Source of the DNA: Chrysomallon squamiferum
Taxonomy: Eukaryota > Animalia > Mollusca
Reading direction: 5' to 3'
Length of the DNA stretch: 64,000 nucleotides
Assembly: GCA_012295275.1 (NCBI GenBank)
Contig: CM022677.1
Location: 1,364,001-1,428,000, forward strand
Positions within the stretch are counted from its first letter, which is position 1, and each line of letters opens with the position of its first letter. The position numbers were made by a program, and so were the translations under genes. The notes under the pieces are model-generated. The model was not told the DNA's origin and did not search any database. It saw only the letters and a list, made by a program, of their open reading frames with translations. Positions 32,669 to 57,210 of this stretch are shown here, one piece after another.

Positions 32669-32730
32669 AATAAACTAGACATGCTGACAAGAAAAATGTC
32701 AAATAATTCAGTCACAATCCATTTGAATCA
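32669..32730 (+). pseudogene. Possible heavily decayed DHX8 exon (RHKLDVVS segment)
   Basis: tttacag| followed by KLDML; position precedes the clear DHX8 exon at 32847. Confidence 0.35.
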
Positions 32731-32846
32731 TACCTAATCTTTATTTCACATGTTAAATTGTATAATCCACATTAATATTGTTCATACAACTCTGAATATT
32801 ATTTTATTTTAATCACAAGTTTTACTCTTTTTTTAATTTTCTTCAG

Positions 32847-33020
32847 GTTCTTTTATCATGAGCTTGGTTTGAGAATGAAAGAAAACACGTGAGAAGTGAT
32901 GTCCTCTGATTCTAAATCACTTGTCAAATTTGCCTCCAAGTTCTTCAAGTTTTCTGATCACCCTGAACTAAGAAAATGAAACATCTCAACAACAAATATG
33001 AACAACTGAATTGTTGGATA
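32847..33020 (+). pseudogene. DHX8: Decayed DHX8/PRP22 C-terminal exon
   Basis: ttcag|(W)FFYHELGLRMKENT*EVMSSDSKSLVKFASKFFKFSDHPELRK / LNNKYEQLNCW versus recalled DHX8 [44 protein letters not shown]...LYNRYEEPNAW. Confidence 0.88.
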
Positions 33021-33029
33021 AAATTGAAA

Positions 33030-34560
33030 ACTTTGTTTGTGTTTTATAGCACTCTCAGCTCTGCAAAGGCTTATGAAACATTTTATACCATGTTTTTTAT
33101 CTCAAAATTTCTAATTTAGGACTATTGTGTTTTCTGTTGTTTACTACACATTTTTAGCTAGCAGTTTCATCAGCTTAGGAAACAATTTCATAAGAGTGAA
33201 GAATATTTTTATTTACATTGTTTTGAAATAACAGTAGAAGTAATACATGCAAATGTGGAGATAATGATAAAAATAATAGTTACACCGACAGATGTAAGTA
33301 TGTTTTAATATTATGACTGAGTTAAGGAAACAAGTCTGGAGTGATTTCAGTATTCTATACCTGGTTTATGTTTAACAAAGATATTTTTCATGGATTTCTC
33401 TGCAAATGAACATATATATTAATATTAATTTGCTATTTTGAAAACAAATGTAAATCATTTTGATACTTTTATAACATTTAAATAGTTTATTCACATGTGT
33501 CTTTCAGTTTATTTATATCTCTCTGTTTGTCTGTCTGTCTGTCTGAGTATTGTTATGTTAAATACTGAGTTACATGTTGAGTCTGTTAAATACTAAGATA
33601 CATGTTGAGTCTGTTAAAGTCATAGCTCATAAAACCTAATTCTATGGTTTATTTATTTATATATGCGTACATTGTTTATCGAAAATCTCTTCTTACTGCG
33701 TCGGATATATTTGAGTTGCTTAGTGCTAGCAACGCGATAACATTCATGGGATGGGAACTGATCAACAACAACTTGACTGTCTTTAGGATTAAAACAGAAA
33801 CTATTACAAGGAGGCAAATAAATAAAGATAGAGTTATATGTGTGTGTGTGTATGAGAGAGAGAGAGAGAGAGAGAGAGAGAGAGAGAGAGAGAGAGAGAG
33901 AGAGAGAGAGAGAGAGAGAGAGAGAGAGAGAGAGATTGATTGATTATTGATTGGTCATAACCAATGGATATCTAAATAAAAACATCTACGCAAATATAAA
34001 TTGGAATAATCAGCCTAGTCGTGAAGCCGCTTTGTCTCTCAAAGGCGAGGTGCAAGCAGCGTTATCAAAATGACAGTAAAAGTAAACATGTAACTGAGAT
34101 GACGTACATATATTCCGTTTTCATGGCAACAGTAGTAGACATGTATTTTAGGACTAGTTACATATATATTACAATATATGTAATAATTACAGCTATATTT
34201 GTCAGTTTCATTTCTGTTATAAATATCTTCATTGTTTTTTTATTTGTCAGTGTTAATACTTTTTTTGTTTTGACCTATTTACAATACCGAAGACAGACAT
34301 GCCCGTTTTGTCACCCACGGGAAAAAATCTATTGTACTTATTGTTTTTCTCAGTTCATTTCCTCTCAAGACTTTTTTCAAATAATGCTAGGGGTTCTTAT
34401 TTACATCACTAAAGTTATTTTGTACCAATAATAATAATAATAATTCTGATGACGAAATTTAATCTTTTCTTTAATTATAACGTTAAACACGGATATGAAT
34501 GAAATTCTTTTTAATAGACAAATTTTGTCTTCTATATACTAGCTATAGATAATTTTACTA
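33030..34560 (+). repeat. Segment X copy 2 plus extension shared with about 61510-63030
   Basis: Long collinear identity with 61510-63030 (e.g. cttagtgctagcaacgcgataacattcatggga; caataccgaagacagacatgcccgttttgtcacccacgg). Confidence 0.9.
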
Positions 34561-56148: not shown

Positions 56149-56347
56149 GATAAACAAGCTCATGTTGTCCAGAAAAAAAGGCCAGGTTCCTTCAGGCCAA
56201 GGATGACCACTTGACCATGTGTGTAGTGCACAGTTCAGTGAAGAACAATCACTTCTCCAGTCCTGACTGTTAAGAGAAACTTGTACAGACTCAGACACTC
56301 AGATGTACTCAACATGTTTGTAAACAGATACTGGGTATAATGGACAG
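56149..56347 (+). pseudogene. DHX8: Decayed DHX8/PRP22 exon
   Basis: tttacag|DKQAHVVQKK/ARFLQAKDDHLTMCVVHSSVKNNHFSSPDC*EKLVQTQTLRCTQHVCKQILGIMDR|gtaatt versus recalled DHX8 [66 protein letters not shown]. Confidence 0.92.
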
Positions 56348-56925
56348 GTAATTCAGTTTACTACCAGATTTTATAAACTTTAAAATAATAAATTACTTAA
56401 TGCCATCTTAGAATGTTTTAATATTAATAATATTATATATATATATATTTTTGTTCATTTGTAAATAATGATATATGTAGATACAAATAGAAATACAGAC
56501 TTTGTCATTGATTTACCAATTGTGATAACAAATCTAAGAGGAAATAGCCAATTGAACATGTATTTTAGAAAGTTTAAATTTAAAAATTAAGAATAAGATA
56601 AAGATTTTAGATTTTATTTGTTATCAATTTAAAAATGTAAAAAAAAAAAATGTATATTTTATTTTTAAAATTATTAGATTCATATTTAAAGGTTCTGACT
56701 TGATTTGTTCAAATTTGTTTTAAACAGGGACATTGCCAGAAAATAAAAAGAACAGGAACAACAAGAAATATTTTAATAAATAGTTTGACTTTATTTCATT
56801 TGAGTTAAATTTTATTTCACTCTACATATATATATTAGTTGAAAACATCACTGCAGATTCAAATGAAGACATAAAATTATAATAGTTGTTCTACAGAAAT
56901 GTACAATGTAATGTTTTATTTTCAG

Positions 56926-57068
56926 AAACAAGCCGGATGTTATATCAGAATCACCACAGAGTACAGAAATCTATTTACAGCAGATTCTTAGAGCAAAGAA
57001 ATCACAGGACAGTTACAGACCATCAGATGTTTTACATATGAGTGCTGTTTTAACAGGCTGAGTGATTG
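56926..57068 (+). pseudogene. DHX8: Decayed DHX8/PRP22 exon (next)
   Basis: ttttcag|(R)NKPDVIS/HRVQKSIYSRFL/AKKSQDSYR/FNRLSDW|gtaagt versus [39 protein letters not shown]...ALFNRQPEW. Splice phases agree with the neighbouring exons. Confidence 0.8.
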
Positions 57069-57155
57069 GTAAGTAAACTGAATGTACATCACATTTGTAA
57101 TACTATTACTGACATTTTTGTTTTAAATGTATGAATGTCATGTCTGAAGTTTTGG

Positions 57156-57210
57156 ACACAAGCTGGTGTTGTACACAGAGCACAGAAATCTATTTACAGC
57201 AGATTCTTCA
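57156..57210 (+). pseudogene. DHX8: Partial tandem duplicate of the preceding DHX8 exon
   Basis: HKL... followed by acagaaatctatttacagcagattctt, identical to about 56963-56989. Confidence 0.65.

Follow-up and report, generated by a model that had tools for sequence, protein, structure and literature searches.

One described setting close to this locus is the tandem expansion of BTBD6 in two vent snails, with 56 and 35 copies according to PMC7736800. BTBD6 and TRIM are also named among the expanded families in PMC7895826. Gene fragments that keep their introns are described from two other systems, namely the duplicons and core duplicons of primates (PMC3747353) and capture by Helitrons and Pack-MULEs (PMC6431247, PMC4224331); in the latter, as here, intron-bearing fragments of several genes occur in many copies. 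The window analysed here is a stretch of 64,000 nucleotides from the mollusc Chrysomallon squamiferum (contig CM022677.1, positions 1,364,001 to 1,428,000). It resembles the vent-snail expansion in that BTB-BACK-PHR genes lie in a repeated cluster and Gigantopelta paralogues are the closest named proteins. In its passages on this expansion, PMC7736800 mentions neither pseudogenes nor Helitrons nor segmental duplication and describes no passenger gene fragments. DHX8 fragments in a mollusc duplication likewise did not turn up in the literature searched. The window contains such fragments, and we interpret them as pseudogene passengers of a mosaic duplication block, i.e., as ordinary debris and not as a working split gene.

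The window is AT-rich animal DNA with a GC content of 29.5% and two gaps of 200 N. A masked self-comparison gave 65 matches, nearly all in direct orientation, which outline repeated X-Y-Z-BTB modules with boundaries that vary from copy to copy. An open BTB-BACK-PHR (BTBD6-like) gene with two coding exons lies at 50266-51925 on the minus strand, and a frameshifted paralogue at 11767-13049 on the same strand. The gene at 9125-11231 (plus strand) encodes a RING domain and a weak NHL-like repeat and is putatively TRIM-like. In the search with the BTB protein (37 proteins), the top matches were Gigantopelta aegis paralogues with 46-57% identity, followed by abalone and bivalve proteins with 28-44%; named Gigantopelta proteins, with 46-52% identity, made up 16 of the best 17 matches. 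The BTB protein was absent from viral contigs (three candidates). Remnants of BTB gene 3' ends were seen at 39016-39156 (minus strand) and 55427-55564 (plus strand), the second being inverted and located just upstream of the site called C below. Positions 1-2412 hold a CpG-rich unit of about 1 kb in tandem repeat (observed/expected 1.76), which is unrelated to the modules.

According to the original prediction, 56149-56347, 56926-57068 and 32847-33020 carry consecutive DHX8 exons. This assignment was borne out by structure-bank matches for the first and third exon and by boundaries that equal those of functional DHX8 loci. E1 (56149-56347, plus strand) is a decayed third-last exon with a frameshift and one stop, and E2 (56926-57068, plus strand) is a decayed second-last exon. 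E3 (32847-33029, plus strand) is the last exon, decayed by a stop and a frameshift; it can be followed as far as 33017, and its final 11 codons or more are missing along with the stop. AG acceptors are present on all three exons, and GT donors on E1 and E2. For comparison, 80 DHX8 loci were taken from metagenome contigs, and exon boundaries were examined in the best 31. The equivalent of E1 measures 197 nt in 19 of these (199 nt here), and the equivalent of E2 measures 180 nt in 22 (143 nt here), the others being not covered or unmatched. The compatible splice phase that had been proposed thus applies at the exon boundaries and fails inside the exons, since with these lengths and with internal frameshifts and stops E1 and E2 cannot be spliced into an open frame. 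A local duplicate of the E2 acceptor region and the first third of E2 (56900-56989) follows at 57128-57208 (plus strand).

The donor was DHX8 and none of the other DEAH paralogs that had been named as possible sources (DHX38, DHX16), as E1 and E3 are both closest to DHX8. The in-frame part of E1 matches residues 1032-1087 of human DHX8 with an E value of 6e-12 (best chain 1e-12), while among the 20 sequences listed DHX15 reached 0.008, PRP16/DHX38 0.13 and DHX16 0.38. The in-frame part of E3 (32847-33020) matched only DHX8, at residues 1150-1190, in seven of the seven sequences listed (best E 5e-4). In a frameshift-aware scan of both strands, E1 scored 150, E3 101 and E2 51, with maxima of 40-44 in the reversed window. 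E2 is the weakest exon, with its score of 51 against a reversed-window maximum of 44, and was aligned to DHX8 only; each of four 19-codon profiles of E2 exceeded 99-100 of 100 local shuffles. Two upstream DHX8 exons tested in the same scan stayed at noise level on both strands of the window, and five full-length mollusc DHX8 proteins revealed no further DHX8 exons in the window beyond E1-E3. A word-based search with the E1 peptide gave no match, and no host DHX8 copy was among the 256 candidates of the metagenome scan.

Among 64 near-invariant single-box codons, changes affect 11 first and 14 second positions (19.5%). First and second positions thus differ about equally, which indicates neutral decay of about 20%. 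Of 96 residues, 54 agree with the majority residue in a set of 36 lophotrochozoan DHX8 proteins, whose mutual similarity is 90-92%. When 93 proteins were scored, molluscan ones came closest among the functional proteins, although their 54 of 96 residues put them only slightly ahead of mammals (48); this fits a host origin of the fragments. Introns and splice sites are retained, so the DHX8 copy was made from DNA. Kept introns, a disabled frame and neutral decay together are the marks of an unprocessed pseudogene. There is no sign of a split or trans-spliced DHX8: stops and frameshifts interrupt the exons, and upstream exons are missing from the window. The DHX8 pieces are predicted, from their sequence, to encode nothing. 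All 30 bins of 50000-61090 have coverage in RNA runs, and the 15 joints listed of 205 include none that skips the E1-E2 intron; this has no bearing on expression either way. Separately, a metagenome contig (L047:486-1281) holds a degenerate DHX8 3' end with 69% identity and an internal loss in the last exon. Intact relatives (L001/L002) occur alongside it, and it is possibly a DHX8-end pseudogene in another animal.

The two sites lie 24 kb apart, and E3 is located upstream of E1-E2. At site C, the end of the intron before E1 (55965-56148, plus strand) marks the beginning of homology with site B, near the left edge of a CpG-poor block. Site B contains, at 32579-32700 (plus strand), the end of the same intron and, from 32669 on, a stub of the first ~30 bases of E1. 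The intron end (32579-32668) is 73% identical to 55965-56056, a value reached by none of 300 shuffles. The stub is 74% identical to site C and scores 38, with 22.5 as the highest score among 500 shuffles. Both sites carry the start of E1; hence, they are two copies and not one split gene. The start of E2 as an alternative identity of the stub was rejected (68 of 500 shuffles as high), and the stub does not match the start of E3 (450 of 500 shuffles). No hidden E3 was found in segment U or behind E2, where 165-205 of 300 shuffles scored as high. Positions 32451-32562 resemble 56603-56724, in the E1-E2 intron of site C, with 64% identity (no shuffle of 300 as high); their location ahead of the E1 stub is out of order.

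Segment X had been reported behind both sites. The shared part does follow both, from 33034 and from about 57950, but 57713-57950 is missing at the 33-kb site, and X is also present at 2613-3396 and 61294-62024. The window hence contains four copies on the plus strand. Copies A (2613-3396) and D (61294-62024) consist of U and the X core and lie behind assembly gaps. Copy B (33034-33545) is a CpG-poor X core with a sharp start at 33030-33034, and copy C (57951-58264) is the most divergent X core. Segment U, about 240 bp, precedes the X core in A, C and D; the stretch at site C (57713-57950, plus strand) is common to 2613-2861 and 61294-61510 with 77-90% identity and is absent at site B. Behind the core of copy B follow distal X and the conserved segment Y (33546-35057, plus strand), which are shared with 62025-63497, contain CRE-like motifs and are CpG-normal from 33666; Y is also found at 4620-5045. 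At 4707-5045, 34720-35057 and 63160-63497, Y is 86-93% conserved and GC-rich with paired CRE-like motifs, and it looks like a cis-regulatory element as far as sequence features tell.

The X cores are 91.5% identical between A and B, 85.7% between B and D and 84% between A and D, and C is about 78.5% identical to the others. Three of the copies (A, C and D) have U, and the simplest explanation for B is that it lost U once and late. Likewise, with C most distant and B closest to A, U-X is most simply the old order and the B junction a late deletion. Copy B is closest to A until about 33433, i.e., over the first 400 bp, and to D afterwards. Its informative sites are A-like and D-like in a ratio of 79:23 in the X core and 10:36 in Y (Fisher p 2e-10). 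Copy B is therefore a mosaic of A-like and D-like sequence, and the copies exchange sequence.

The suggestion that X is the 3' UTR attached to the last exon did not survive. At 33030-33034, E3 stops at least 11 codons short of its stop, X adjoins directly, and identity with copy A begins abruptly at 33034. E3 and U do not match. As X joins E3 before the stop, and as A, C and D run upstream into U, X is not a 3' UTR in its original continuity. The missing tail codons were not found in X. The start of X as a fourth DHX8 exon had looked promising in an ungapped scan, where the start of copy B ranked 12th among 126,976 positions (4th with a shorter profile, which was chosen after the fact). This candidate is ruled out by the last DHX8 exon, which is intronless through the stop in all 31 related loci that carry the lophotrochozoan tail. 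It also failed in a gapped test, in which 116-191 of 200 shuffles scored as high for the single copies and 457 of 500 for the four together. The power control of this test detected 11 of 11 equally long pieces of true exons (0-1 of 100 shuffles), and the test also missed the last 40 bases of E3 (57 of 200 shuffles). X may still be a more distant flank of DHX8, although we lean slightly against this identification.

The base composition divides the window sharply. Block B (26240-33660) has a CpG observed/expected ratio of 0.05 over 26500-33550, and block C (55950-61093) one of 0.16-0.20 over 55900-61090; the ratio is 0.21 over 2613-4400 and 0.8-1.1 in the BTB, RING-gene, distal X, Y and Z regions. 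Sharp edges lie at about 26.0-26.2 kb, at 33.66 kb and at about 55.9 kb, the last being where homology between B and C begins. CpG-depleted are E1, its intron, E2, E3 and the X cores of A, B and C (first 500 bp of X). In seven pooled pieces of U and X core, 13 CpG were counted and 39 expected; copy D is the weaker case with 7 against 11. In oyster, gene-body methylation builds up in housekeeping genes, and young repeats accumulate methylation as well, according to PMC4378273 and PMC8857917. In view of this pattern, the depletion suggests that the X core likely comes from, or once lay in, methylated genic DNA. A DHX8 flank would be compatible with this, and so would, to the same degree, another gene or methylation in place.

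All identified foreign gene fragments sit in CpG-poor blocks, and the BTB/TRIM backbone is CpG-normal. In block B, two decayed exons of the collagen IV NC1 (C4) domain are located at 27197-27920 (plus strand; PF01413, E 5.6e-12, two stretches), and a MULE transposase fragment without detectable terminal repeats at 31033-31230 (plus strand; PF10551, E 6.9e-7). By eye, Gly-X-Y-like collagen IV pieces can be seen in an exon at 26689-26813 and, after the NC1 exons, at about 28420-28470. Exon-like islands that are GC-richer and have AG acceptors were noted at 30228-30345, 31775-32040 and 29068-29420. The islands of 28.3-32.0 kb gave no structure-bank match (plus strand, 27.9-32.5 kb), and neither these nor 58.6-59.8 kb matched Pfam, Atlas or the 80 DHX8 loci. 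The coding-like stretch 58626-59775 in block C has its longest frame on the minus strand (146 aa) and near-identical high-depth contigs in public runs; it may have come from a gene convergent with DHX8. Directly before block B, 25500-26010 is CpG-rich with a GT donor-like site (by eye) and could represent the start of a chimeric transcription unit, with its promoter and first exon. Rfam gave no match.

The original prediction of one captured DHX8 end that was amplified and then deleted differently stands as far as one donor, two copies and differential deletion are concerned, and differential deletion is the most economical history. Capture by a transposon is the part not demonstrated here, as no termini were found. 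We consider it probable that a DHX8 end was duplicated once at the DNA level upstream of U-X, multiplied with its block among the BTB genes and was trimmed by different deletions. The ancestral order would have been E1-E2-E3, an intervening stretch, then U-X. At site C, E3 would have been lost in one deletion. Site B would have undergone two deletions, one taking most of E1 through E2 and the other the stretch from the last part of E3 through U. The driver may have been unequal or ectopic recombination among the copies. The divergences suggest that the copy left its parent first (about 20% at constrained positions), that C then split off (21-26% from B) and that A, B and D separated last (8-16%). 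Several points speak against this history. Site B needs two deletions, the tree that makes the B junction late is not firm because the copies are mosaic, and same-strand fragments of unrelated genes, as in block B, are also expected from Helitron or Pack-MULE capture.

The last point leads to the strongest competitor, in which a large non-autonomous DNA transposon of the Helitron, Pack-MULE or CACTA type collected the DHX8 end together with other gene pieces in several steps and carried them to new places, with the deletions as internal decay of element copies. The pieces in one block are of the expected kind, i.e., same-strand, intron-bearing fragments of unrelated genes with a MULE transposase fragment among them; the CpG-poor blocks are sharply bounded, and divergent contigs are many. 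For Helitrons, PMC6431247 describes up to nine fragments per element and elements of up to 39 kb. Ends of such an element, however, were not found. Apart from microsatellites and one BTB-end remnant, no long inverted repeats exist in the window, and terminal inverted repeats with a target-site duplication, as in Pack-MULE and CACTA elements, were not found. A hairpin-plus-CTRRT end was also absent in one strict scan. An old element could have lost its termini to decay, or they could be hidden in the assembly gaps. The edges of the CpG-poor blocks are unrelated to each other and have no convincing terminal repeats (0, 3, 0 and 0 14-mers, at chance level), and the module boundaries differ among copies. 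In that no termini, hairpin or terminal inverted repeats were found, the locus differs from described Helitron and Pack-MULE capture. Pfam detected no Rep-helicase in 23.6-29.5, 30.1-33.1, 45.5-49.7 and 57.6-61.1 kb (plus strand for 26.5-33.1 kb). Furthermore, Pack-MULEs are described as mostly 1-2 kb long with whole-gene capture exceptionally rare, whereas whole BTB genes are repeated here. Capture in bats favours the 5' ends of genes (PMC4224331), and the two identified cargoes here are 3' ends. Taken as a whole, we regard the transposon as an unlikely source.

Much less probable still is a history in which U is a remnant of the E2-E3 intron. Copies A, C and D would then descend from a copy that lost E3, B would be a recombinant of an E3-bearing and an A-like copy, and X could be native DNA downstream of DHX8. 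The position of U, 645-880 bp behind the E2 donor, falls inside the range of 86-1649 bp that this intron has in related loci, copy B is a proven mosaic, and U shares the CpG depletion of the X core. But B is A-like right up to its junction, including a 5-bp gap shared with A and D, and the join is therefore non-homologous. Moreover, at site B the intron end before E3 does not resemble what follows E2 at site C (263 of 300 shuffles as high). A single DHX8 pseudogene that was broken with its halves moved apart, or an assembly error, would explain why the exons are consecutive and complementary, and two X copies do adjoin assembly gaps and the site B junction is given by the assembly alone, but this is the most remote of the readings, as the start of E1 is present at both sites and 26% apart, E3 lies upstream of E1-E2, the X copies are 8-22% apart and thus too different for uncollapsed haplotypes, and public runs contain half of the words of 50266-57300 (4 of 11 rows).

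Amplification of the locus is suggested by public data. On 50000-61090, two DNA runs provided 9516 and 7641 contigs, over half of them less than 95% alike. The summed depth within E1 and E2 is 11,700-29,800, which does not equal copy number, and single divergent contigs have depths of 56-204. These data suggest tens to hundreds of related copies. In run X4, the summed contig depth on the BTB coding exon at 50370-51479 is 200,000-270,000, about 10 times the value of the flanking DNA, which hints at BTB-like copies far beyond the dozens annotated in vent snails.

The duplication history preferred above gives the fragments a use. With neutrally decaying DHX8 exons, the published expansion of BTBD6 in vent snails can be timed internally and its breakpoints marked, and the CpG contrast shows which DNA derives from methylated genes. 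A bolder reading, which we consider doubtful, is that a gene-scavenging duplication unit drives the BTBD6 expansion. A CpG-normal backbone (distal X, Y, Z, TRIM and BTB) would repeatedly gather, at a single position, the 3' ends of methylated housekeeping genes (DHX8, collagen IV and others) and spread them in tens or hundreds of copies. Such a unit would be core-duplicon-like or giant transposon-like, and a mollusc counterpart is absent from the literature searched. If the backbone does collect gene ends repeatedly, this would explain the family expansion and extend the core-duplicon idea from primates to an invertebrate.

Of the described systems, unprocessed gene fragments in mosaic duplication blocks come nearest to this locus. 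Compared with segmental duplications, most copy pairs here are 78-92% identical, against the usual 90% over 1 kb, the host is a mollusc, and no core element is defined. The locus has the features of a mosaic duplication, namely repeated modules of several kb with subunits of different origin and recombination between the copies. These are the features described for primate duplicons and core duplicons (PMC3747353), where, as here, subunits of different origin are juxtaposed, the block is duplicated again, the copies recombine, and gene fragments with their introns are carried along.
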